From assembly GCA_947465495.1 (NCBI GenBank), contig CANIAS010000002.1, positions 14,274 to 78,273 on the forward strand: a DNA stretch of 64,000 nt, read 5' to 3'. The notes under the pieces are model-generated. The model saw nothing but the letters and a program-made list of their open reading frames with translations. It did no database searches and was not told the DNA's origin. The position numbers and the translations under genes were made by a program. The stretch is from Candidatus Pollutiaquabacter sp. GTDB taxonomy: Bacteria > Bacteroidota > Bacteroidia > AKYH767-A > 2013-40CM-41-45. Of this stretch, positions 2,934-27,531 are shown one piece after another (position 1 is the stretch's first letter; every line of letters begins with the position of its first letter).

Positions 2934-4853
2934 ATGAATCAAAAGCGAAACGTCCTTCTTTCCGCAACCTTACTTGCCTTTGCCATTTTCTTAGGTAGCA
3001 TTTACCTGCCAAATAGCATTCACGTAGAATTCCTCTACCCACTAATCGTACTACTTTCCATAACGCTGCACGATCGCCGTTCCACGTTTGATATCAGCGT
3101 AGGACTTACTATTCTTCTTGTCCTTGATTTTTTTATTTCCTCCGATTATACCGCACTTCAAACGCGAGTTATTCCTTCGTTACTTCCGATTCTCTTCGTA
3201 TGGAGCTTTACTTTCGCAGTATTAAAATACAAGGAATCACAATTGAAATTATTGCGTAGTACAGAGCACTTGAATGCCATGTTTCAATACGCAACAGAAG
3301 GCATCTTAATTAGCAATCAAAAAGGAGAGATCATACTTTCAAATCCCATGAGCTCGAAACAATTCGGCTATGAAGAAAACGAATTGTTAGGAAAACGAAT
3401 TGAAGACCTTGTTCCAAAACGGTTTGCCGAAAAGCACCCCAAAAACAGAACGGAATACTACGGAAATCCACACAACCGACCCATGGGTCAAGGAATGAAG
3501 CTCTTTGGAAGAAAAAAGGACGATCAGGAGTTTCCCATTGAAATAAGTCTAAGTTCATTCAAAATTGGTCAGGAATTATTCGTAATCAGCTTCATTATTG
3601 ATATAACTGAGCGCCATCGACAAGAGGAAGCTATCAATAAATCCAACGAAGAACTTGAATTCCGTGTATTGTCAAGGACTATGGAATTGGCGGCGGCGAA
3701 CAAATCACTTGAACAAGCAAATGACCATCTAAAAGCTGAAATGCAAGAGCGAAGTAACGTAGAAGAAGCACTTAGAGATAGTGAAAGACTATACAGTACT
3801 ATCGCTCACAATTTTCCAGATGGTATCATTTGCGTATTAAACCATGCCTTAGAGATTGTTTTTATCGATGGAAAAGAATTGGAGGAACTTAAAATCAACA
3901 ATTCCGATATGCATGGAAAATACTGGCGTTCCCTTAATCTATGCGCTGATGACAAACGCGATTACTTAGAAAGTGTTTTTCGAAAAGTATTTTCCTGGGA
4001 AAATGCAAACATGGAATGTGAATACAATCATCGTAATTATGCCTTAAATGCTGTTCCGCTACCAGATGACCGAGGAAATGTAAAGGAAATACTGCTTGTC
4101 ATTCGCAATATTACCAGAAGAAAAATAGCCGAACAAGAAATTTTAATCTCTTTAGAGAAAGAACGTAATTTAAATGAAATGAAATCGCGTTTCGTTTCGA
4201 TGGCATCGCATGAATTCCGTACACCATTAAGCACAATTCTTTCATCTATTCAACTTGTAGATCGCTATCAGGGTGCCGAGAATCGTGATAAACAGCTAAA
4301 ACACATTGATCGTATTAAATCTTCGGTTAAAAATCTTACTGAAATTCTAAACGATTTCTTGTCACTTGAAAAATTAGAAGCAGGAAAAGTAGAAGTACAA
4401 CTCAACAATGTAAACCTTGTAGAATTCTGCCATGAAATGAGCGAAGAGTTACAAGGAGTAGCTAAGGCTGGTCAGAAAATCATCTACACACATCAGGGAG
4501 GCGACAAAGTAATCCGTACCGACAAACAACTTTTGCGCAACGTGCTTATCAATCTACTTAATAATGCCATTAAATATTCCAAGGAAAACGAAAACATATA
4601 TTTCACGTCACTGGTCAACCATGAAATCTGCATAAACATTTCTGATAACGGAATTGGAATTCCCTTCGATGAACAACCTCAGCTTTTTGAACGTTTTTTC
4701 CGTGCCACCAACGCCAACAACATCCAAGGAACAGGACTAGGGCTTAACATTGTACAACGATATACTAAATTACTTCAGGGAAATATTTCTTTTACCAGTC
4801 AAGAAAACAAAGGAACTACATTCACCGTCCAATTACCTAACATTTTAAACTAA
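2934..4853 (+). CDS. Membrane-anchored PAS/PAC sensor histidine kinase
   Basis: 639 aa. It has 3-4 N-terminal hydrophobic helices, two PAS-like segments, the H-box SMASHEFRTPLSTI and an HATPase_c with NLLNNAIKYS, DNGIGIP and GTGLGLNIV. Confidence 0.9.
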   Translation: MNQKRNVLLSATLLAFAIFLGSIYLPNSIHVEFLYPLIVLLSITLHDRRSTFDISVGLTILLVLDFFISSDYTALQTRVIPSLLPILFVWSFTFAVLKYKESQLKLLRSTEHLNAMFQYATEGILISNQKGEIILSNPMSSKQFGYEENELLGKRIEDLVPKRFAEKHPKNRTEYYGNPHNRPMGQGMKLFGRKKDDQEFPIEISLSSFKIGQELFVISFIIDITERHRQEEAINKSNEELEFRVLSRTMELAAANKSLEQANDHLKAEMQERSNVEEALRDSERLYSTIAHNFPDGIICVLNHALEIVFIDGKELEELKINNSDMHGKYWRSLNLCADDKRDYLESVFRKVFSWENANMECEYNHRNYALNAVPLPDDRGNVKEILLVIRNITRRKIAEQEILISLEKERNLNEMKSRFVSMASHEFRTPLSTILSSIQLVDRYQGAENRDKQLKHIDRIKSSVKNLTEILNDFLSLEKLEAGKVEVQLNNVNLVEFCHEMSEELQGVAKAGQKIIYTHQGGDKVIRTDKQLLRNVLINLLNNAIKYSKENENIYFTSLVNHEICINISDNGIGIPFDEQPQLFERFFRATNANNIQGTGLGLNIVQRYTKLLQGNISFTSQENKGTTFTVQLPNILN

Positions 4854-4860
4854 CACTACC

Positions 4861-5916
4861 ATGAAAAAAATTTTATTGATTGAAGACAACAAAGAAATGC
4901 GCGAAAACACGTGCGAAATTCTGGAACTTGCCAACTACCAGGTGATTACAGCCAGTAATGGCAAAACAGGCGTAGACATTGCGCTAAAAGAGGTGCCGGA
5001 CCTTATCATATGCGATATTATGATGCCCGAATTAGACGGCTATGGTGTCTTATATCTTATCAGCAAGAACCCTACTACTTCGGGCATTCCATTTATTTTC
5101 CTAACCGCCAAAGCCGAAAAATCAGACATGCGTAAAGGCATGAGCATGGGCGCTGACGATTATTTAACAAAACCATTTGAAGAAATGGAATTGCTTAATG
5201 CTGTGGAAGCACGTATGCGGAAAAATGAATTATTCAAACGTGAGTTTTCTAAAAACGTAGACGGTTTAAATGAGTTTCTGGCAAATGCCAAGGGGATGGA
5301 GGAGCTTACGAAATTATCAGCAGAACGTAAACCTCACCATTACAAGAAAAAAGATGCTATCTACATGGAAGGTGACGAACCAACAGGGATTGTCTTCATT
5401 AACAAAGGAAAAATAAAAACGTTTAAGTCAAACAATGACGGCAAAGAATTCATTACAGGCATATATGGTGCCGGCGACTTTATCGGCTACAACGATCTAA
5501 TAGAAAATAAAGAACACAAAGAAACAGCTGAAACATTAGAAGACAGCGAAGTGGTAATCATCCCTAAGCAGGACTTCTTCTCACTACTCTACTCCAACCG
5601 TGATGTTGCCGCTAAGTTTATCAAACTACTTTCAAATAATCTCCAAGATAACGAGGAACGACTGTTAAATCTCGCGTATAATTCCGTGCGTAAACGCGTA
5701 GCCGATGCACTACTTAATTTGCAAGGTCGGTACACAATCGCGGGAAGTCCGCAACCTTTCAATGTATCTCGGGAAGATCTGGCAAGCATGGTAGGCACTG
5801 CGACAGAATCAGTTATCAGAACACTTTCTGATTTCAAGGAAGAAAAGTTAATCGAGATAAAAGATCGAAACATAGTCATCGCCAATACCGATCGCCTTAC
5901 ACGTCTCAAAAACTGA
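4861..5916 (+). CDS. Response regulator with a REC receiver fused to a cNMP-binding (Crp/Fnr) domain and a Crp-type HTH
   Basis: 351 aa. The REC domain reads KKILLIEDNKEMRE...DLIICDIMMPELDG...LTAK. A cNMP-binding beta-roll (IYMEGDEPTGIVFINKGKIKTF) follows, then a C-terminal HTH (SREDLASMVGTATESVIRTLSDF). The start is 8 nt after the kinase stop, so the two are probably one operon. Confidence 0.85.
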   Translation: MKKILLIEDNKEMRENTCEILELANYQVITASNGKTGVDIALKEVPDLIICDIMMPELDGYGVLYLISKNPTTSGIPFIFLTAKAEKSDMRKGMSMGADDYLTKPFEEMELLNAVEARMRKNELFKREFSKNVDGLNEFLANAKGMEELTKLSAERKPHHYKKKDAIYMEGDEPTGIVFINKGKIKTFKSNNDGKEFITGIYGAGDFIGYNDLIENKEHKETAETLEDSEVVIIPKQDFFSLLYSNRDVAAKFIKLLSNNLQDNEERLLNLAYNSVRKRVADALLNLQGRYTIAGSPQPFNVSREDLASMVGTATESVIRTLSDFKEEKLIEIKDRNIVIANTDRLTRLKN

Positions 5917-18027: not shown

Positions 18028-19113
18028 TTAATAATACTTGACGACTGCTATTTTCTGGAAGTCAGTCAATCGACCATTGGAAACAAATTGTATGTCTCCC
18101 TTACTTCGTAATACCATCTCAATGAGATCATCGACTGCATCAGAAATATTACGGTGGGAGCCAGGAAGAAGTTGATCCACGTGAATGGACATACCATCTT
18201 CCCGGAAATAGGCTGGTTGCACATAGTCTTTTTCAACCAACAACAACCTACATTGCCCCTCCGTAACCGCACGCCAGACCTCCTCCACGCCGGCTGCGTA
18301 ACTTCCTTTACTTACCGCTGAGGCCAGCGACAAAAGGCTTTTCTCCTCTACTTCTTGGTTAACTTTATCTAAAATAGGCTCCAACAACTTTCTTAACTGC
18401 GGTGATGTAGCATGTTCGTAATTACCCTCCACAAAACCAATGGTATTGCGCTCATTAGCAGACTGAGCTTTGATGTAGCCTAAAAACTTCTTGTCGCCCA
18501 TAAAAACGATTGGCGTATCGGAATTGCCTAACGCTTGATGAACCGCATGATCTATTAGCCGCAAAAAATTTCGTATGTTTTTTTCGTTATATGCCTTCGT
18601 ATCAAGGTATTCCCATCCTGGTAATGAATGATTATTTGTTACATCAGCGATGTTATCGGGCATATCCTTGAAAACTACCGGAAAGAAGATTTTTCCATAA
18701 ACCATAGAGGTCCGCACTCCATTCTTTGTAATAGCAACCAATAAAAACTGCTTATTCAGTTTGACGGAATAGACCAAGTCACGCACTTCAAAAGAATCGT
18801 CGACAACTACTTTTTCTGTGACGTTGAATGGCAACTGAACCAATCGAGCATGATGAGGAGAAACGTAAATAGCAAGGCCTTCAGAAAGTTGGGTATAATT
18901 GATTTCGTCCACAGTATCATGTAACCTTCTCATCATCTCTTCTGTTTTTTGTTTACTGTAACGATCATGGAGTTGACTTTGCACTTGTGATACCAAATCA
19001 ATCATATGTTCTCGATCCAACTTGAAAGCAGGATATTGAGGGTGAGTTGGGACGACAATTGAAATCGCAGGAAATTCTTTTTGACCGATCAAGTCTTTTT
19101 CGAGGAGTTGCAT
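18028..19113 (-). CDS. eRF1/Pelota-like protein lacking GGQ (a bacterial baeRF-type release-factor homolog). Hypothetical.
   Basis: 361 aa. Three segments align by eye to eRF1 domains 2-3: FLLVAITKNGVRTSMVYG ~ FGFIVIDGSGALFGTL; GFVEGNYEH...KVNQEVEEKSL ~ ISYGGENGF...NVKFIQEKKL; KGSYAAGVEEVWRAVTEGQCRLLLV ~ [23 protein letters not shown]. No GGQ is present in the equivalent loop. Confidence 0.5.
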   Translation of the reverse strand: MQLLEKDLIGQKEFPAISIVVPTHPQYPAFKLDREHMIDLVSQVQSQLHDRYSKQKTEEMMRRLHDTVDEINYTQLSEGLAIYVSPHHARLVQLPFNVTEKVVVDDSFEVRDLVYSVKLNKQFLLVAITKNGVRTSMVYGKIFFPVVFKDMPDNIADVTNNHSLPGWEYLDTKAYNEKNIRNFLRLIDHAVHQALGNSDTPIVFMGDKKFLGYIKAQSANERNTIGFVEGNYEHATSPQLRKLLEPILDKVNQEVEEKSLLSLASAVSKGSYAAGVEEVWRAVTEGQCRLLLVEKDYVQPAYFREDGMSIHVDQLLPGSHRNISDAVDDLIEMVLRSKGDIQFVSNGRLTDFQKIAVVKYY

Positions 19114-19333
19114 GGCAGATTTATTTTAGATTGAAACTCCTGTAAACGTACGCGTCGAAAAACAGAACACCGATGACTGCGGACAAGGCAAGCAGTGATT
19201 TTGCTCACCCATTTTTAAAAACACTAATTTGATGCGGCAACGCGCTATTGTATAAATAGTCACTATAAATCAATTCTGGAAATCGTGGATTAAAACACGA
19301 ATTTGAACGGATTTTTTTATATTTTTAGTCTCG

Positions 19334-20098
19334 ATGAAAAAGAGACTTACTATTGATTTAATTTACAACTTGGTTTTAGCAGGACTACTATCATGCATGT
19401 TGCCTGGCTGTGAAAATGACACTGTTTATCCATTATCTACTACCAGCACTCTTAAGATTAATGTTTCTAATACGGTAAATGGAACATCTTTGCAACTGGG
19501 GCAAATGGCATACACAAACGTATCAGGAAACAATTATCAAGTTGATCTGTTACGATATTACTTGTCCAATTTCTCGCTTGTGAAATCCGATAGCAACTAT
19601 TATAACCTCCGGAATTACGACTTAATAGACGCCGAAAATGCGGAAAGTTGCAAGATCACCGGCGACAACGTTCCCAACGGGAAATACACCTACCTGTGTT
19701 TTTATGTCGGTGTGGATAGCACCCATAACAATTCCATTGATCAAACCGGCGACCTAGATCCACTGTATGGTATGTTTTGGCCCTGGAATACCGGTTATAT
19801 ATTTTTTAAGCACGAAGGGTATTATGTGGACTCTTTAGGATCGACCAATAACCTACTATTCCATTATGGAACAGCGCCTGCATTGGTTACAGTGGCCATT
19901 CCTGTTAATATTGAACTATCGGGTAGCACTTGCAGCATCGATCTGCAATTTGATTTAAATTCGGTGTATAACACACCGACCCCAATTGATTTTAACGTGG
20001 ACAATTATCATCAATCTGCCTCGGGTAGCGAACGAGATTGGATTGAAACCATGAAGCAAAATCTCTCAACCGCCTTTACCATCACCGCCGTACACTAA
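19334..20098 (+). CDS. MbnP-family lipoprotein (periplasmic copper-binding partner of di-haem peroxidase MbnH). Putative.
   Basis: 254 aa. A lipoprotein signal is present with lipobox Cys (LLSCMLPGC). It lies 8 nt upstream of a di-haem cytochrome c peroxidase, which is the canonical MbnP-MbnH pairing. The assignment rests on context and size, not on verified motifs. Confidence 0.5.
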   Translation: MKKRLTIDLIYNLVLAGLLSCMLPGCENDTVYPLSTTSTLKINVSNTVNGTSLQLGQMAYTNVSGNNYQVDLLRYYLSNFSLVKSDSNYYNLRNYDLIDAENAESCKITGDNVPNGKYTYLCFYVGVDSTHNNSIDQTGDLDPLYGMFWPWNTGYIFFKHEGYYVDSLGSTNNLLFHYGTAPALVTVAIPVNIELSGSTCSIDLQFDLNSVYNTPTPIDFNVDNYHQSASGSERDWIETMKQNLSTAFTITAVH

Positions 20099-20105
20099 TT
20101 TCAAC

Positions 20106-21155
20106 ATGGACTTTCGCAGGGTACTCTTTTTAATAGCATCGATCTACTTAGTCATAGTGGCATGCAACAAAGACGAAGTAGAATCCGTCAGTAACGGCCC
20201 TACGCCATATCAGCTTAGTATTCCGTCATCGCTGCCACCGATGAATATTCCAGGATCAAATCCACTGACCGTGGAAGGCATCGCACTCGGAAGAAAATTG
20301 TTTTACGACCCATTATTATCGGGCAACAATATCCAATCTTGTGGAGACTGCCATAATCAGGCATTCGGCTTTACAGACAACAATTTTGCACTCAGTACTG
20401 GGATTGATGGAATCGATGGAACTAGAAATTCGATGCCGCTGTTTAATTTAGGATATGCTTCTAATTTCTTTTGGGACGGTGGTGCCACCACGCTTGAATC
20501 GCAAGTTGTAGGACCGATTACCAATCCGATTGAGATGCACGAAGACCTTACCAATTGTGTCAACGAGCTTAAATCGCAACCAGACTACCCGGCTCTATTC
20601 AAAGCTGCCTTTCAAACTGATTCGATTACGATTTCTATGGTAATGAAAGCCATTGCCCAATTCGAACGCACCCTGATTTCGGGCAGCTCAAAATACGATC
20701 AGTCAGTAAAAGGACAGGTCGCGTTGACTTCTCAAGAAGAGAGCGGAAAGCTAGTATTCCTCTCTGCCGCAAAAGGCGATTGCACCCACTGCCACATTTT
20801 AGGCAGCACCTTCACCGATTTTGCCTACAAGAATAATGGATTAGATTCTATTTCAGCGGACAGTGGCCGGGCTCGTATTACACTCAACCCAACTGACCTC
20901 GGTAAATTCAAAACACCTAGTTTACGTAACATCGCGGTAACTCCACCCTACATGCACGATGGTCGATTTTCTACCTTGCAACAGGTGATAGAGCACTACA
21001 ATACCGGTTTTCATTACGCAGCCAATCTAGATCCAAATCTTCAAAATGCAGTGAAAGGTCGAATGAGCCCCCAGGAGATTAGTGATCTGATTGCTTTTTT
21101 AATGACCTTGACCGATACCGATTTTCTGTCCAATCCTGCTTACGGACATCCGTAA
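20106..21155 (+). CDS. Di-haem cytochrome c peroxidase (CCP/MauG/MbnH family)
   Basis: 349 aa. There are two CxxCH haem motifs (CGDCHNQAF and CTHCHIL) and the conserved MauG/CCP segment PSLRNIAVTPPYMHDG. Confidence 0.85.
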   Translation: MDFRRVLFLIASIYLVIVACNKDEVESVSNGPTPYQLSIPSSLPPMNIPGSNPLTVEGIALGRKLFYDPLLSGNNIQSCGDCHNQAFGFTDNNFALSTGIDGIDGTRNSMPLFNLGYASNFFWDGGATTLESQVVGPITNPIEMHEDLTNCVNELKSQPDYPALFKAAFQTDSITISMVMKAIAQFERTLISGSSKYDQSVKGQVALTSQEESGKLVFLSAAKGDCTHCHILGSTFTDFAYKNNGLDSISADSGRARITLNPTDLGKFKTPSLRNIAVTPPYMHDGRFSTLQQVIEHYNTGFHYAANLDPNLQNAVKGRMSPQEISDLIAFLMTLTDTDFLSNPAYGHP

Positions 21156-21239
21156 TTATCAATTTTTCTTCTGTTAAAAGCTCCCTATTAACTCCAGGAG
21201 CTTTTTACTATATTTCGAGTTGTTAAACATACCCTGTCC

Positions 21240-23576
21240 ATGAAAAAACACCTATTGTTGCTAGTTGTGCTGTTTTTGATCCAATCACAAAGCTACGCAG
21301 CCTGTCAGACTGGTTACACTGAGGTCATCGTTCAGATTATTCCTGACAGTTGGCCGAATGAGATTTCCTGGCAACTCAGTGAATCCGGAGGAAACATCCT
21401 TCAGAGTGGAACTTCAGAAGGAGATACACTGTGTGTGCCTGTCGGATCCTGTCTGGAGTTTGTCATCAACGACAGCTATGGCGATGGAATTTACGCTCCA
21501 GGCGGTTATTGGCTTTACGTTGATGGCATTCAAGTTGCGACTGGCTACAACTACGGCTCGCAGGATATGGTAGCTCTGAATTGTCCGCCCGGCATGCATT
21601 GCACATCGCCATTAGAAATTACCTACGGTACCCATTGGGCAACCTTCGAAGACACGTGGTTTGTATATACGGCTGACTCATCTGGCACCTATAACTTAAC
21701 CACCTGCGATAGCAACAGCTGCAACACACAACTTTGGTTATACACCAGTTGCCCGACCCTTCCTTATACGGATGGACCGATGGGATCCTACATCTACAAC
21801 GACGATAATAATTGCGGTACCCAAGCCAGTATGAATTTCACCCTGGTAGCTGGAACTACGTACCTCATTCGTATTGGCGACAACGGAGGCGACTGCTCCG
21901 ATTCAATCAATTTTAGCTTCTCTTATTTCGGACCAGTCATGGGTTGTATGGACCCCTCGGCCTGCAATTTCAACCCGCTGGCTACAGTATCCGACAATTC
22001 ATGTATTTATTACCCAAATCCGATGTGTCAAGGCCCTGACCTTCAGTTTGACTCACTGTCGTTCATCAATAGCATCTCCTTACAAACCTTCAGCGCATCT
22101 ACATGCGACGTAGCCGAAGGATGTGTGACTGGATATGGTACACGATACGTATTGTCCTTTACTTCCAAAATTAACAACATAGGGACTCAGGATTATTACA
22201 TTGGAACACCCTCGTCTCAACCAGGCATGTTCAATACCAATAATTGTCACGGACATGCACACTACGAAGGGTACGGCGACTATCGACTGTACGATTCCTT
22301 GGGAACCATTGTACCGGCAGGCCATAAAAACGGCTACTGTGTGATGGACTTATGCGGTATGGGCCAATACAACTGTGGCGACATGGGCATTTCAGCAGGA
22401 TGCTATGATGTGTATGGCGCCGGCACACAATGCCAGTGGATCGACATCACCGACGTAGCAGATGGCGACTATCGCTTGGCCATCCTCATCAATTCCCAAC
22501 ACCTCCCGGATGCGTTGGGTCATTACGAAACCAATCATCTCAACAACGCCCTTCAGATTTGCATTCGAATTACGCATAACGCACAAGGTGTTCCTAGCTA
22601 CTCTATACTTCCAAATTGTACTCCTTACGTCGATTGCAACGGAGTACCAGGAGGAGTATCAGAAACAGATTGCAATGGAATTTGTGGCGGACCTTCTGTA
22701 TACGGTGACCTTAATTCGGATGCCTTATTGAACACAGCAGATATTACTAGTTACATGGATCAAGTAGAATCCCAATTCTCTGCTACAACGTGTAATGATC
22801 TGAACGGAGACGGAGAGCTAACCATATTCGATGTAGCACAATCAAATTGGTGTTATTACGGCAATCCGAATATTCAAGGCGGCACTCACAATCATTGCCA
22901 ATTTCCGCGCAACCTAATTAGCTTCACTGACACTTCCGAATTGAGTATAGTCGCATTCGATCCTATTAACAACTACATTGATGTTGGCTTGAAAAATCCG
23001 CGCGTAGGGATCAAAGGATACCAATTTACGGTGAGTGGCATCGATGTGTTTTCTTACATCAGCATGATCAACCCATTGCAATTCCAGGCAGACGTGCGAT
23101 ACATTCCTGCTACCCATGAGGTCATTGCATTTGGCCTGAACGACTCCACGATTCCTAGATCTACATTACCACGTCCATTGATCCGTCTGTTCTACAACAA
23201 TGTAACAGATACAGTGGTTTGTATCAGTTCGATTTCTGACATCATGAACGAACGTGGGGAAGGTACCATACCCGCACTCGCAAACAACTGTCGCAGTTTC
23301 AGCACAACCAATGTAAGTTCCCTGTACAAAAACGCTGCACTGATGGTGGTTCCAAATCCTGCGAAGGACGAAGCTTACTTACACATATCAGAAGGATTCA
23401 ATCCGGGTGCTACCATCATGATGGTCGACATAACTGGAAAACAATTCCAAGTTTCTGTAGCGCAATTGCGAAAAGATTGGGTGAAATTAGACTTGAAGGA
23501 ACTTCCAAATGGAGTTTATATGATTCGAATTCTGGATGGCGATTATGCCGGTACAGCGCGAGTTGTAAAACTCTAA
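21240..23576 (+). CDS. Secreted multidomain protein with a lysyl-oxidase-like copper amine oxidase catalytic domain, dockerin-like Ca-binding repeats and a T9SS C-terminal sorting domain
   Basis: 778 aa with a signal peptide. The LOX copper/LTQ core is [18 protein letters not shown] (vs human LOX CHQHYHSMDEFSHYD), [10 protein letters not shown] (vs GHKASFCLED) and [27 protein letters not shown] (vs [27 protein letters not shown]). The dockerin-like repeats are [13 protein letters not shown] and [13 protein letters not shown]. The T9SS CTD is [14 protein letters not shown]...GVYMIRI...RVVKL. Confidence 0.8.
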   Translation: [778 protein letters not shown]

Positions 23577-23580
23577 GCCA

Positions 23581-24285
23581 TTACATACAGGCAGTCTCAA
23601 GAGCCACTTCCACCATTTGGCGAAGTCCGTTCTGTCGTTGCTCGGCGGTCATTTCTTCGCCGGTACGTATGTGATCGCTGATAGTAAGGATGGCGAGAGC
23701 GCTTGCACCATACTCGGCGGCAACACCATAAAGACCTGCAGCCTCCATTTCAACACATAGAATTCCCATTCGTTCTACGTGATCGTATAGGTCTTTGATA
23801 GGACTATAGAAATAATCGGAAGAGAAGCACATTCCCGTGCGCACTGTGAGTTTCCTGCTGCGACCAGCATCAACCGCACGACGCACCAGCTCAAAATCAG
23901 CGCATGGTGCGAAATCCAAACCAAGCAGACGGGAACGATTGACCATTGAATCTGTACTTGCCGATAGTGCCACTACAAGATCGCCCAACTGGGTGCCTTT
24001 CAATCCACCGGCAGTACCGATTCGTATAATATTTTTAACGCCATATTCGGTAATCAACTCCTTCGCATACAACATGCAGGAAGGAATGCCCATTCCCGAG
24101 CCCATGACAGAGACTCGTTGCCCATGAAAATTGCCCGTGAATGCAAGCATATTTCTGATCTCGTTGACCTGCACCACCTCTGACAAAAAGGTATCCGCGA
24201 TAAATTTGGCTCGTAGCGGATCACCAGGAAATAGAACAGTTTTGGCGAAGGCACCTTCAGGAGCGCCGATATGTATGGTAGACAT
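23581..24285 (-). CDS. deoD: Purine nucleoside phosphorylase, DeoD type
   Basis: 234 aa. The PNP-I pattern MSTIHIGAPEGAFAKTVLFPGDPLRAKFIA...VMGSGMGIPS...RIGTAGG is present. Confidence 0.9.
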   Translation of the reverse strand: MSTIHIGAPEGAFAKTVLFPGDPLRAKFIADTFLSEVVQVNEIRNMLAFTGNFHGQRVSVMGSGMGIPSCMLYAKELITEYGVKNIIRIGTAGGLKGTQLGDLVVALSASTDSMVNRSRLLGLDFAPCADFELVRRAVDAGRSRKLTVRTGMCFSSDYFYSPIKDLYDHVERMGILCVEMEAAGLYGVAAEYGASALAILTISDHIRTGEEMTAEQRQNGLRQMVEVALETACM

Positions 24286-24495: not shown

Positions 24496-24571
<76 letters not shown>

Positions 24572-24613
24572 AGTTAGAGATCCCTCGTACCAGCGGGGGA
24601 TTTTCTTTTAAAT

Positions 24614-24698
24614 GCCCGGATGGTGGAACTGGTAGACACGAGGGACTTAAAATCCCTTGGCCATTGCGGCCGTGCAGGTTCGATTCCTGTTCCGGGTA
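24614..24698 (+). tRNA. tRNA-Leu (anticodon TAA), type II with a long variable arm
   Basis: The acceptor is gcccgga/tccgggt, the anticodon stem aggga/tccct with loop ctTAAaa, followed by a long variable arm and a T-arm gcagg-ttcgattc-cctgt. CCA is not encoded. Confidence 0.8.
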
Positions 24699-24741
24699 CT
24701 TTAATATAGAGGTGAAGTTTGCTCTTCCAGAGCCTTCACAC

Positions 24742-27531
24742 CTACTTACCTCCTATCACCTTTTTAATTTCGTTCAGCATATTTAAGGCCTGAACAGGTG
24801 TTAGGTTGTCCAAATCAGCTTTCAAAATTTGTTCCCGTACTTGTTCTAGTACCGGATCATCCAACTGAAAAAAGCTCAATTGAAAATCCGGGTCACTAGC
24901 TGCTTTCTTTTTACTTCCAGCAGCACTGGTCGATGACAACTTACCAGCAGTAGCTGAATTCGTCGAAGCGCTGGCTGAGCTGGTCGAAGCGCTGGCTGAG
25001 CTGGTCGAAGCGCTGGCTGAGCTGGTCGAAGCGCTGGCTGAGCTGGTCGAAGCCCGACTTGCCTCCAACTGTTTCAAAATCTCACTCGCACGCTGCACCA
25101 CTTTTATCGGGATGCCCGCCATCTTCGCAACATGTATTCCGAAACTATGCTCGCTCCCACCCGGCACTAACTTTCGCAAGAATAAAACATTCGTACCTGT
25201 CTCTTTGACTGCTACGTGAAAATTACGGATTCGCTGCATCTCAGTAGCCATCTCATTCAGTTCATGATAATGAGTAGCAAAGAGGGTTTTCGCGCTGACA
25301 GTAGGATGTTCATGAATATACTCGGCAATCGACCAGGCGATGCTAATTCCGTCGTAGGTGGCTGTGCCTCGTCCTATTTCATCCAATAAGACCAGACTAC
25401 GATCAGACAAATTATGAAGAATACTGGCGGTCTCATTCATCTCCACCATAAAGGTCGACTCCCCGGAAGAGATATTGTCGGATGCGCCAACACGAGTAAA
25501 AATCTTGTCGACGATTCCAATGCGAGCTGAAGTTGCCGGGACGAAACTTCCCACTTGCGCCATCAAGGTAATTAAAGCGGTCTGCCGCAATAAAGCCGAC
25601 TTACCAGACATATTGGGTCCAGTGATCATGAGCACCTGCTGCACATCAGGATCCAGGTAGATGTCATTAGCGACAAACTTCTCTCCTATTGGCAGCTGTC
25701 TCTCAATTACTGGATGACGACCATCCTTAATGTCAATGATACGTCCTTCATTTATTTCAGGACGTACGTACCCTGATCGTGTAGCGGTTGAAGAGAACGA
25801 TTGCAGTACATCCATGCGTGACAATAAAGCGGCATTCAGCTGCACGGGCTGTATATATTCCAACAATGCGACCATTAAATCAGCAAACAAACGCTCCTCG
25901 ATGGCCAAAATCTTCTCCTCTGCTCCGAGTATCTTCTCTTCGTACTCTTTTAGTTCCGCGGTGATATAGCGTTCGGCGTTTGTCAATGTCTGCTTACGGA
26001 TCCACTCCAAAGGAACCTTGTCTTTGTGTGTATGTGTCACTTCAATGTAATACCCGAAAACATTGTTGAAGCCTACTTTCAAGGATGTAATCCCGGTACG
26101 TTCCGCTTCACGTTGCTGTATTTTCAGTAAGACATCCTTACCATGGAAGGCTATGGCGCGTAACTCATCTAGCTCATGATGGACACCGGACCGAATCACA
26201 CCTCCTTTATGGACAAGTGCAGGAGCTTCCGGGTCCAATTCGCGTACTATCCGTTCGCGCATGATTTGACATGAGTTAAGCTGATCACCAATCATCCGCA
26301 AGGAGTCCCGGTCACTGTTTAGCAGCTGTTCACGTATCCGTTCAGTCATTTCCAATGAACGTCGAAGTTGCAAGACATCTCTTGGAGATACTTTGCCAAG
26401 TGCGACCTTAGAAATCAACCGTTCCAAGTCGCCAACCTGCTTCAACGAATCAACAAGCGTTGCCGTGAACTCATCGTTTTTCAATAAATAATCTACAGCA
26501 TCCAACCGCTCCTCTATCGCTGTACGCTCCTTGAGTGGAAGCATGATCCAACGTTTCATCAGTCGTGCGCCCATCGGAGTGACCGTCTGATCGAGAACAT
26601 CGACCAGCGTAACAGCGTTCTCATTGGACGAGCCGACCAATTCAAGATTTCGTATGGTAAACTTGTCAAGCCATACATACCGATCTTCTTCCAACCTTGA
26701 AATCGCGGTGATGTGCTTCAATTGATCTTGACGTGTGTCTGAAACATAATGAAGCGCAGCTCCAGCAGCAACAATGGCAGCTGGGAATTCTTCGACACCA
26801 AAACCTTTCAATGATTTGGTACCGAAATGGCGCAATAACAATTCGCGTGTATAATCGGGTTGAAACACCCATTCATCGACTGCGTAATTATAAAACCTAG
26901 TGCCTATCCGATCTTGTAAGTCCTTCTTTTGAACACGGGAGAAAATAACCTCCGTTGGTTGAAAATTCTGCAAGAGCTTTTCCACGTAATCCATGGATCC
27001 TTGAGCTGCATAAAATTCACCGGTTGAAATGTCTACAAAAGAAACGCCAGCCACTTTCCCGTCTACATGCAGTGAGGCCAGGTAATTGTTTTTTTTATGC
27101 TCAAGAATTTTGTCGTTGTATGAAACCCCGGGTGTTACAAATTCTGTCACTCCCCTTTTAACGATTTTCTTGGTCAATTTAGGGTCTTCCAGCTGATCGC
27201 AGATAGCTACTCGCATTCCTGCACGCACCAACTTAGGCAGATACGTATCCAATGAATGGTGCGGAAATCCGGCTAACTCAATAAATGTAGCTGATCCATT
27301 GGCACGACGGGTAAGGACGATTCCAAGGATGGAGGACGCCTTCACTGCGTCCTCGCCAAAGGTCTCGTAGAAATCACCCACCCGAAACAATAATAAGGCG
27401 TCCGGATACTTCGCCTTGATGCCGTAGTATTGTTTCATGAGCGGAGTTTCCACTACCGCATTTTTTGTCTCTTCTTTCAACAAGATTTTTCGCTTCTTTG
27501 TCACTGGAAACCCAGTATGCGCAAGATACAA
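24742..27531 (-). CDS. mutS: DNA mismatch repair protein MutS with a C-terminal (ASASTSS)n low-complexity insert
   Basis: 929 aa. It has the N-terminal mismatch-binding domain PLMKQYYGIKAKYPDALLLFRVGDFYETF, Walker A GPNMSGKS and the HTH region. The true start is probably downstream of 27531 (GTG at 27504 or ATG at 27438), because 27517-27531 overlaps the divergent TrmH-family gene. Confidence 0.9.
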   Translation of the reverse strand: MYLAHTGFPVTKKRKILLKEETKNAVVETPLMKQYYGIKAKYPDALLLFRVGDFYETFGEDAVKASSILGIVLTRRANGSATFIELAGFPHHSLDTYLPKLVRAGMRVAICDQLEDPKLTKKIVKRGVTEFVTPGVSYNDKILEHKKNNYLASLHVDGKVAGVSFVDISTGEFYAAQGSMDYVEKLLQNFQPTEVIFSRVQKKDLQDRIGTRFYNYAVDEWVFQPDYTRELLLRHFGTKSLKGFGVEEFPAAIVAAGAALHYVSDTRQDQLKHITAISRLEEDRYVWLDKFTIRNLELVGSSNENAVTLVDVLDQTVTPMGARLMKRWIMLPLKERTAIEERLDAVDYLLKNDEFTATLVDSLKQVGDLERLISKVALGKVSPRDVLQLRRSLEMTERIREQLLNSDRDSLRMIGDQLNSCQIMRERIVRELDPEAPALVHKGGVIRSGVHHELDELRAIAFHGKDVLLKIQQREAERTGITSLKVGFNNVFGYYIEVTHTHKDKVPLEWIRKQTLTNAERYITAELKEYEEKILGAEEKILAIEERLFADLMVALLEYIQPVQLNAALLSRMDVLQSFSSTATRSGYVRPEINEGRIIDIKDGRHPVIERQLPIGEKFVANDIYLDPDVQQVLMITGPNMSGKSALLRQTALITLMAQVGSFVPATSARIGIVDKIFTRVGASDNISSGESTFMVEMNETASILHNLSDRSLVLLDEIGRGTATYDGISIAWSIAEYIHEHPTVSAKTLFATHYHELNEMATEMQRIRNFHVAVKETGTNVLFLRKLVPGGSEHSFGIHVAKMAGIPIKVVQRASEILKQLEASRASTSSASASTSSASASTSSASASTSSASASTNSATAGKLSSTSAAGSKKKAASDPDFQLSFFQLDDPVLEQVREQILKADLDNLTPVQALNMLNEIKKVIGGK

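Follow-up and report, generated by a model that had tools for sequence, protein, structure and literature searches.

The closest described counterpart of the gene pair studied here is the MbnP/MbnH pair of Methylosinus trichosporium OB3b (structures 7L6G and 6e1c; the 'metallo-mystery pair' of the models TIGR04052 and TIGR04039). MbnP binds copper through His, Met, water and Kyn174, a kynurenine that MbnH makes from a Trp of the WxW motif (PMC11951088). MbnP/MbnH pairs were described outside methanobactin operons and producers in 2013 (PMC3621798), and MbnPH-like genes are found in copper-regulated operons of other bacteria (PMC9426467). Here we analysed a 64-kb stretch of DNA from Candidatus Pollutiaquabacter sp. 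(Bacteroidota), hereafter the window, in which the gene of an MbnP-family lipoprotein is followed by that of an MbnH-like di-haem enzyme. We consider it probable that the two genes form a module of the MbnP/MbnH type for methanobactin-independent copper binding, used in copper acquisition or handling.

The window pair has the gene order and the tight spacing of the Methylosinus pair:

19334..20098, + strand: MbnP-family lipoprotein of a Bacteroidota subfamily, 254 aa, assigned by PF20243, fold and motif residues
20106..21155, + strand: MbnH-like, MauG-type di-haem cytochrome c enzyme, 349 aa, assigned by CCP_MauG, TIGR04039, 6e1c and Tyr298

Both open reading frames (ORFs) are real genes, with matches to Pfam MbnP (1.8e-40) and CCP_MauG (7.1e-58). 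The first had been announced in a first-pass annotation of this DNA as a lipoprotein of about 250 aa; its 254 residues begin with a signal peptide and a lipobox (..LPGC, Cys26). Between the end of its stop codon at 20098 and the following ATG at 20106 there are seven bases, so the MbnH-like gene starts at the eighth base after the stop, which agrees with the distance of 8 nt given by that annotation. The MbnH-like protein has its own lipobox (Cys20). Because both proteins carry lipoboxes, they are presumably exported and anchored to the membrane by lipid. The MbnP protein is found identical, with the same neighbours, on two independent metagenome contigs of 81-84 kb, and its relatives come almost all from Bacteroidota metagenome-assembled genomes.

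The lipoprotein matched Pfam MbnP (PF20243) with 139.3 bits against a gathering score of 27, over profile positions 2-182 of 189. Its AlphaFold model, built from 32 relatives, had a mean predicted local distance difference test (pLDDT) score of 92.3. When this model was compared with the PDB in Foldseek, the top six matches were the six MbnP chains of 7L6G (E 4.6e-9 to 1.5e-7, probability 1.00). They were the sole matches with E <1e-6, the next one having an E of 0.012. In hhalign, a five-member canonical profile aligned with the Bacteroidota profile over 178 columns with a probability of 98.1% and an E of 7e-14. The canonical set consisted of Methylocystis, Trichormus and Pseudoalteromonas plasmid sequences and the 7L6G sequence, the latter taken via Methylocystis parvus MbnP. 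Judged by profile and modelled fold, the product of 19334-20098 is a member of the MbnP family in the broad Pfam sense. The MbnP-like identity proposed in the first-pass annotation is borne out by the Pfam match, the fold of 7L6G and a shared G-M-x-W-x-W motif.

Besides the fold, the lipoprotein shares with Methylosinus MbnP the core G-M-x-W-x-W..G..F..(E/D) ... H-x-G-(S/T). MAFFT and hhalign agree in aligning L-Y-G146-M147-F-W149-P-W151-N-T-G154-Y-I-F157 of the window protein with I-S-G-M-A-W-N-W-Q-A-G-R-R-F of 7L6G. The WxW motif (W149-P-W151) is present and stands opposite W-N-W, and F-H177-Y-G-T is aligned with V-H-V-G-S. Conservation was counted over 257 Bacteroidota relatives of the lipoprotein. 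M147 is kept in 255 of them, W149 in 256, W151 in 251, H177 in 252 and E161 in 249, while 244 have a Cys aligned to the lipobox Cys26. In the canonical MbnPs the residue aligned to H177 is invariant and the one aligned to M147 nearly so. Since H177 is the only His conserved in both the canonical and the Bacteroidota group, it is a more parsimonious candidate for the His ligand than position 133, to which we return below. We propose Met147, Trp149 or Trp151 (the kynurenine precursor in WxW) and His177 as the putative copper-site residues. The conserved Trp, His and Met had been set as a check on the MbnP assignment, and the outcome does not refute it: W149, W151, M147 and H177 align with the crystallised MbnP and are 98-100% conserved in the relatives.

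The second gene had been called a two-CxxCH enzyme of the cytochrome c peroxidase (CCP)/MauG family, which agrees with its CCP_MauG match and its motifs C79GDCH and C226THCH. The best NCBIfam model was TIGR04039, 'MbnH family di-heme enzyme', followed by TIGR03791 (MauG) with 181 bits against a cut-off of 444. The closest PDB match was 6e1c, MbnH of Methylosinus trichosporium (1.9e-50). Behind it ranked the canonical peroxidases MacA and Nitrosomonas CCP (~1e-41) and MauG (~1e-28). Both haem motifs (C79xxC82H83 and C226xxC229H230) and the inter-haem Trp123 also occur in 6e1c. Tyr298 (V-I-E-H-Y-N) is aligned with Tyr294 of MauG (A-I-L-F-Y-N) and with the Tyr of MbnH (V-I-D-I-Y-S), which means that the window enzyme and Methylosinus MbnH both have Tyr at the ligand position of the second haem. 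In MauG-type enzymes the second haem is ligated by His and Tyr, whereas peroxide-scavenging peroxidases use His and Met (PMC11892367). Tyr298, both CxxCH motifs, Trp123 and the lipobox Cys20 are invariant in 57/57 Bacteroidota orthologues. With Tyr298 at the position of the sixth ligand of the second haem, the enzyme is, by alignment, of the MauG type and not a His/Met peroxidase. From this position and from the MbnH- and MauG-like matches we predict that it acts as a protein-modifying oxidant and not as a detoxifying peroxidase. The MbnH-like label of the first-pass annotation is in keeping with 6e1c as the best PDB relative and with Tyr298 lying on MauG Tyr294.

To place the pair among its relatives we used the best 80 of more than 575 relatives of the lipoprotein, taken from a scan of one genome per species (loci are cited by L numbers). 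A di-haem gene lies directly downstream of MbnP in 59 of the 73 loci with enough downstream sequence. When the family profile was run against 1.84 billion representative proteins, 6127 cluster representatives were found at E <= 0.001. The MbnP/MbnH pair is a common and conserved module in Bacteroidota.

The genes around the pair in these relatives include several with links to copper. An HMA-domain protein of 115 aa with a CxxC is encoded beside the pair in 15 loci, mostly right downstream of the di-haem gene. A TonB-dependent receptor comes next in about 10 loci, an arrangement reminiscent of the link between canonical pairs and mbnT. L013 (1857-8759) and L014 (2396-13012) have the pair inside a same-strand copper gene cluster, in which a multicopper oxidase gene ends just ahead of MbnP and which also encodes a DUF3347 protein, an AraC regulator and an HMA-MauE fusion. 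L014 also has several proteins downstream with a type IX secretion system (T9SS) tail, including a second multicopper oxidase. In L084 (7-8295) and L085, a T9SS-tailed multicopper oxidase gene stands directly upstream of MbnP, and MbnH follows. Further on, the opposite strand carries the gene of a 742-aa protein in which the T9SS tail is the only recognised domain, and then comes a lysyl-oxidase-T9SS gene, so two secreted cuproenzyme genes flank one MbnP/MbnH pair. For a copper function in Bacteroidota, such neighbourhoods, found in several lineages, are the strongest support at hand. The recurrent HMA, TonB-receptor, multicopper oxidase and lysyl oxidase neighbours constitute independent support. 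The non-methanobactin copper role suggested in the first-pass annotation is supported, at the level of sequence, by homology and by these gene neighbourhoods.

Two further observations concern the same loci. A protein of ~130 aa with no Pfam match and with many cysteines (C-G-G..C-D-C-G..C-C-H) is encoded directly upstream of MbnP in L041 (7516-7905). Its equivalents (gene cluster 17) occur in L013, L059, L068, L081 and L082. The loci with the cluster 17 protein also carry HMA and TonB-receptor genes, and the protein may be a further part of the HMA/TonB version of the system. In about a fifth of the related loci, a WxW-bearing MbnP gene has no di-haem gene downstream (L025, L029, L030, L032, L040, L058, L067, L073, L078 and L079), and a DUF4159 gene regularly precedes these orphan MbnP genes.

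The window differs from the canonical system in that no TonB receptor, sigma/anti-sigma pair or methanobactin genes lie near the pair. All ORFs of at least 200 aa in the window received an assignment, from Pfam scans or from the precomputed Pfam families of a matching contig, and among these there was no mbnB, mbnC, mbnM/MATE pump or TonB-dependent receptor. No mbnA was found in the 64-kb window either, but ORF scanning alone can miss the short mbnA peptide. With that reservation for mbnA, the absence of mbnT, mbnA and mbnBC claimed in the first-pass annotation was confirmed. In contrast, the Methylocystis loci L163 and L164 do carry mbn operon genes.

By analogy with Methylosinus, the following course of events can be proposed. 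The di-haem enzyme would react with H2O2 to reach a bis-Fe(IV) state, as inferred from Methylosinus MbnH, and would then oxidise W149 or W151 in the G-M-x-W-x-W motif of its partner to kynurenine. This kynurenine, together with Met147 and His177, would form a mononuclear copper site. The lipoprotein would then be a copper-binding protein on the periplasmic side, the compartment being predicted, and would be used in copper acquisition or handling. As a speculative suggestion, the copper might be destined for the lysyl-oxidase-like cuproenzyme which is encoded next to the pair and has a T9SS sorting domain.

Several points weigh against assigning the pair to such a copper module. The NCBI model TIGR04052 matched the window lipoprotein significantly (E 1.4e-11), but the 44.3 bits fall short of the 140 set as its equivalog cut-off. 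As controls we used MbnPs that either belong to true methanobactin operons or bear a copper-binding annotation; the one from Methylocystis reached 291 bits and the one from Pseudoalteromonas 153 bits. The outcome of the MbnP profile check is therefore a clear Pfam match together with a significant, sub-equivalog NCBI match. The enzyme likewise reached 251.9 bits with TIGR04039 and missed the cut-off of 362.85, with Methylocystis MbnH at 494 bits as the control, so that both window proteins, unlike the canonical pair, are sub-equivalog. The Foldseek alignment to 7L6G has an identity of just 16-19% and a TM-score of 0.44-0.55. PDB sequence searches with the lipoprotein alone or with the 32-sequence family profile did not reach 7L6G, and because of this the link to MbnP was made by fold search and profile-profile alignment. 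The lipoprotein has none of the invariant cysteines of the canonical MbnPs (C87, C187, C199, C242 and C251), and 177/257 relatives have no Cys past residue 30; the depositors of 7L6G named it 'four-Cys motif protein'. A second His, which belongs to the NHS motif and is invariant in the five canonical MbnPs, is replaced by Asn133 in the window protein and is His in 133/257 relatives. Apart from the lysyl oxidase, there is no copper-homeostasis gene in the 64-kb window.

Part of this divergence is shared with other Bacteroidota. Compared with the methanotroph MbnPs (322 and 350 aa), the window lipoprotein is about 40-70 residues shorter and lacks their C-terminal extension as well as their cysteines. 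It has a lipobox, as does its partner; in canonical Methylocystis MbnP the corresponding position carries no lipobox Cys. Within the same phylum, the Chondrinema litorale plasmid NZ_CP111054 encodes 'MbnP family protein' and 'cytochrome c peroxidase' and likewise has no methanobactin genes. Its MbnPs are of similar size (249 and 271 aa) and have a Cys after the signal peptide, as in the window lipoprotein. These proteins, named 'MbnP family protein' by NCBI, also score below the thresholds, with 49-52 bits for TIGR04052 (44 here), and the corresponding TIGR04039 scores are 235-277 bits (252 here). The arrangement is different: in Chondrinema two consecutive pairs, one with the gene order reversed, lie beside an ABC/RND-type efflux system, while the window has just one pair, with a lysyl oxidase gene after it.

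Two further systems are comparable in their chemistry. In gammaproteobacterial methanotrophs, MopE/CorA is a surface or periplasmic copper protein whose site contains a kynurenine derived from Trp and whose gene lies beside that of a di-haem cytochrome c peroxidase homologue (CorB in Methylomicrobium) (PMC3621798, PMC11951088). MopE/CorA differ from MbnP in having another fold, no marked sequence similarity and a copper site with two His instead of His and Met (PMC11951088), and no similarity to them was seen in any search made here. The second is MauG with pre-methylamine dehydrogenase. MauG belongs to the same superfamily as the window enzyme, its Tyr294 corresponds to Tyr298, and it oxidises a Trp of its partner remotely (PMC11951088). 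It is set apart by the score of the window enzyme with TIGR03791, far below the cut-off, by the lack of methylamine dehydrogenase genes in the window and by its product, a cross-linked quinone, where kynurenine is predicted here.

Both the literature and annotation pipelines already cover the family, its pairing and its presence beyond methanobactin operons. On annotated plasmids, pairs that are not accompanied by methanobactin genes occur in one cyanobacterium, one gammaproteobacterium and one Bacteroidota species. Because such pairs had already been described (PMC3621798), the first-pass annotation overstated the novelty of this one. The window pair represents a divergent, lipoprotein-type, cysteine-free subfamily from Bacteroidota which is uncharacterised. 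As this subfamily is large and uniform and keeps the Met/Trp/Trp/His core, it narrows down which MbnP residues are essential. Mildly new is the gene for a T9SS-secreted lysyl-oxidase-family cuproenzyme beside the pair, which is found in the closest clade only. Adjacency to T9SS-secreted cuproenzymes offers a testable idea of how exported copper enzymes are metallated.

The pair and this lysyl-oxidase gene lie on the + strand, with minus-strand genes on both sides:

18028-19113, - strand: baeRF-domain ribosome-hibernation-factor family gene, divergent, upstream of the pair
21176..21205, + strand: terminator-like hairpin with a 9-bp stem and a 12-nt loop, its 3' arm running into a U-rich tract; minimum free energy -14.2 kcal/mol, z = -3.3
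21240..23576, + strand: lysyl-oxidase-family protein, 778 aa, with a signal peptide and a T9SS C-terminal sorting domain; Pfam Lysyl_oxidase (PF01186) 4.8e-24, Por_Secre_tail
23581-24285, - strand: purine nucleoside phosphorylase gene, flanking the + strand block downstream

Lysyl oxidases in Bacteroidetes have been noted earlier, with no known function (PMC4448552). The window gene starts 84 nt past the MbnH-like gene. In the alignment to human LOXL2 (5ZE3; 9.6e-19), the motifs C-H337-G-H339-A-H341, G-H-K363 and G-C-Y-D-V-Y392 are kept, and the copper histidines H337, H339 and H341 as well as K363 and Y392 are invariant in 15 full-length homologues. By analogy with LOXL2, we take K363 and Y392 to be the precursor residues of the lysine tyrosylquinone (LTQ) cofactor.

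Among the 80 MbnP loci, a lysyl oxidase gene stands beside the pair only in the closest clade (L003, L004, L005 and L083), and L012 has a partial lysyl-oxidase match at the locus end. L008, L009, L011 and L016, which have more distant MbnPs, share the upstream synteny and have no lysyl oxidase. Viewed from the other side, an MbnP/MbnH pair lies no more than 6 kb away in 7/80 lysyl-oxidase loci, which show three arrangements, and is lacking in 73/80. In 4 of these 7 loci a peptidase gene and a helicase gene lie between the lysyl oxidase and the pair.

The hairpin between the MbnH-like and the lysyl-oxidase gene is stronger than expected by chance, as 0/200 shuffles fold as well. It is followed, about 25 nt ahead of the lysyl-oxidase ATG, by the element TATATTTCG, which by our own reading resembles the Bacteroidota -7 promoter box. 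L005 and L083 have a comparable hairpin and a TTTCG element. A scan for sigma-70 promoters and terminators gave background numbers only; it was not designed for Bacteroidota promoters. Since the terminator-like hairpin and the promoter-like box separate the two genes, we read the pair and the lysyl oxidase as two adjacent, predicted transcription units. A three-gene operon including the lysyl oxidase was considered and is not supported, given these two elements, the restriction to the nearest clade and the many lysyl-oxidase loci without the pair. The repeated occurrence of the pair near genes of secreted cuproenzymes is suggestive of a link, which is not established.

A narrower form of the copper module would make the pair a copper-loading system, in which MbnP holds periplasmic copper and metallates T9SS cuproenzymes before their export. 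The same-strand lysyl-oxidase gene at 84 nt, with its copper and LTQ residues all intact, fits this proposal. So does the trio kept in L003, L004, L005 and L083 and partly in L012. In a different lineage, L084 and L085 have the order T9SS-tailed multicopper oxidase, MbnP and MbnH, and the lysyl oxidase gene comes after another 2.7 kb. Multicopper oxidases also stand right upstream of MbnP in L013 and L014, and a T9SS-tailed one lies downstream in L014. Against this, few of the lysyl-oxidase loci are near a pair, and in four of those seven the genes in between are unrelated housekeeping genes. The restriction of the lysyl oxidase to the closest clade fits a single insertion event, and the hairpin and the promoter-like box part the transcription units. 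In addition, T9SS cargo genes recur in the loci of the relatives and in the window, so adjacency to one of them is weak evidence. We know of no established route by which secreted T9SS cuproenzymes acquire their metal. We regard the copper-loading form as unlikely for the window pair. It is similarly doubtful that the MbnP/MbnH of Bacteroidota would generally be a lipid-anchored copper store or chaperone which loads T9SS-exported enzymes such as lysyl oxidase and multicopper oxidases.

The remaining alternatives concern the enzyme. It could be a periplasmic cytochrome c peroxidase of the ordinary kind, serving in H2O2 detoxification, with the lipoprotein as an unrelated or merely structural neighbour. 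NCBI names the equivalent Bacteroidota genes plain 'cytochrome c peroxidase', MacA and Nitrosomonas CCP are strong PDB matches, and the divergent neighbours are stress genes (a universal stress protein, Usp, and the ribosome-hibernation-factor family protein) with Crp/Fnr-like sites. This explanation is nevertheless improbable. The ligand position of the second haem is Tyr and never Met in all orthologues, the MbnH structure and the MbnH model match best, and an MbnP-family gene directly adjoins the enzyme gene in most loci, here with the 7-nt spacer. Least likely of all, and hardly credible, is that the di-haem enzyme matures the quinone cofactor of the lysyl oxidase, instead of or besides acting on MbnP, as MauG does for tryptophan tryptophylquinone. 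MauG-family enzymes do mature quinone cofactors of partner proteins (PMC11951088). The MauG model is the second-best NCBIfam match and the lysyl-oxidase gene adjoins the pair. On the other side, the pairing of MbnH with MbnP is near-universal in the family, whereas the lysyl oxidase is found in one clade only, and most lysyl-oxidase homologues have no such neighbour. The quinone of lysyl oxidases is generally regarded as arising by copper-dependent self-catalysis.

The intergenic region between the baeRF gene and the pair contains two possible regulatory sites, and the same motif recurs near two regulatory genes at the start of the window:

2934-4853: PAS histidine kinase, near motif copies
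4861-5916: protein with response-regulator, cNMP-binding and Crp helix-turn-helix (HTH) domains, near motif copies
19174-19185 and 19196-19207, no strand assigned: two Crp/Fnr-like boxes, TGACTGCGGACA and TGATTTTGCTCA (TGAY-N4-RTCA), in the baeRF-MbnP divergent intergenic region

The boxes start 22 nt apart, and this spacing is kept in L003, L004, L005, L008, L009, L011 and L012. These seven genomes share the baeRF-MbnP neighbourhood, except that the L005 contig ends too close for baeRF to be called. With L005 set aside, no exact box occurs in the other 64 MbnP loci that lack a called baeRF neighbour. Within the first 11 kb of the window, the motif has further exact copies at 2823, 6509, 6531, 7680, 9703 and 11085, which form a cluster in non-coding DNA around the Usp and Nramp genes. 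Together with the Usp, Nramp, Crp-HTH and kinase genes, this cluster looks like a stress or hypoxia regulon. The boxes as regulators of the pair were considered and probably do not apply, as they were found only where baeRF is the divergent neighbour. Because of this restriction they probably belong to the oppositely oriented baeRF/Usp side, although they could also control the pair.

The PLSDB gene table appears to give some product labels to the wrong genes. Several MbnH genes are labelled 'methanobactin export MATE transporter MbnM' (NZ_CP092970.1, NZ_CP047243.1, NZ_CP049906.1 and others). L164, L166 and L168 are loci with this label, and the gene at the true mbnM position of L164 bears the name 'hypothetical protein'.

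Downstream of the purine nucleoside phosphorylase gene the window continues as follows:

24496-24571, + strand: tRNA-Gly(GCC) gene, between the purine nucleoside phosphorylase and MutS genes
24614-24699, + strand: tRNA-Leu(TAA) gene, between the same two genes
24742-27531, - strand: MutS gene, with a Ser/Ala-rich tandem repeat (…SSASASTSSASAS…) at its end

A 91-aa ORF at 24511-24786 reads across both tRNA genes and was discarded as spurious. The called length of MutS is 891 aa in L001 and 905 aa in L002, two metagenome contigs that otherwise match.

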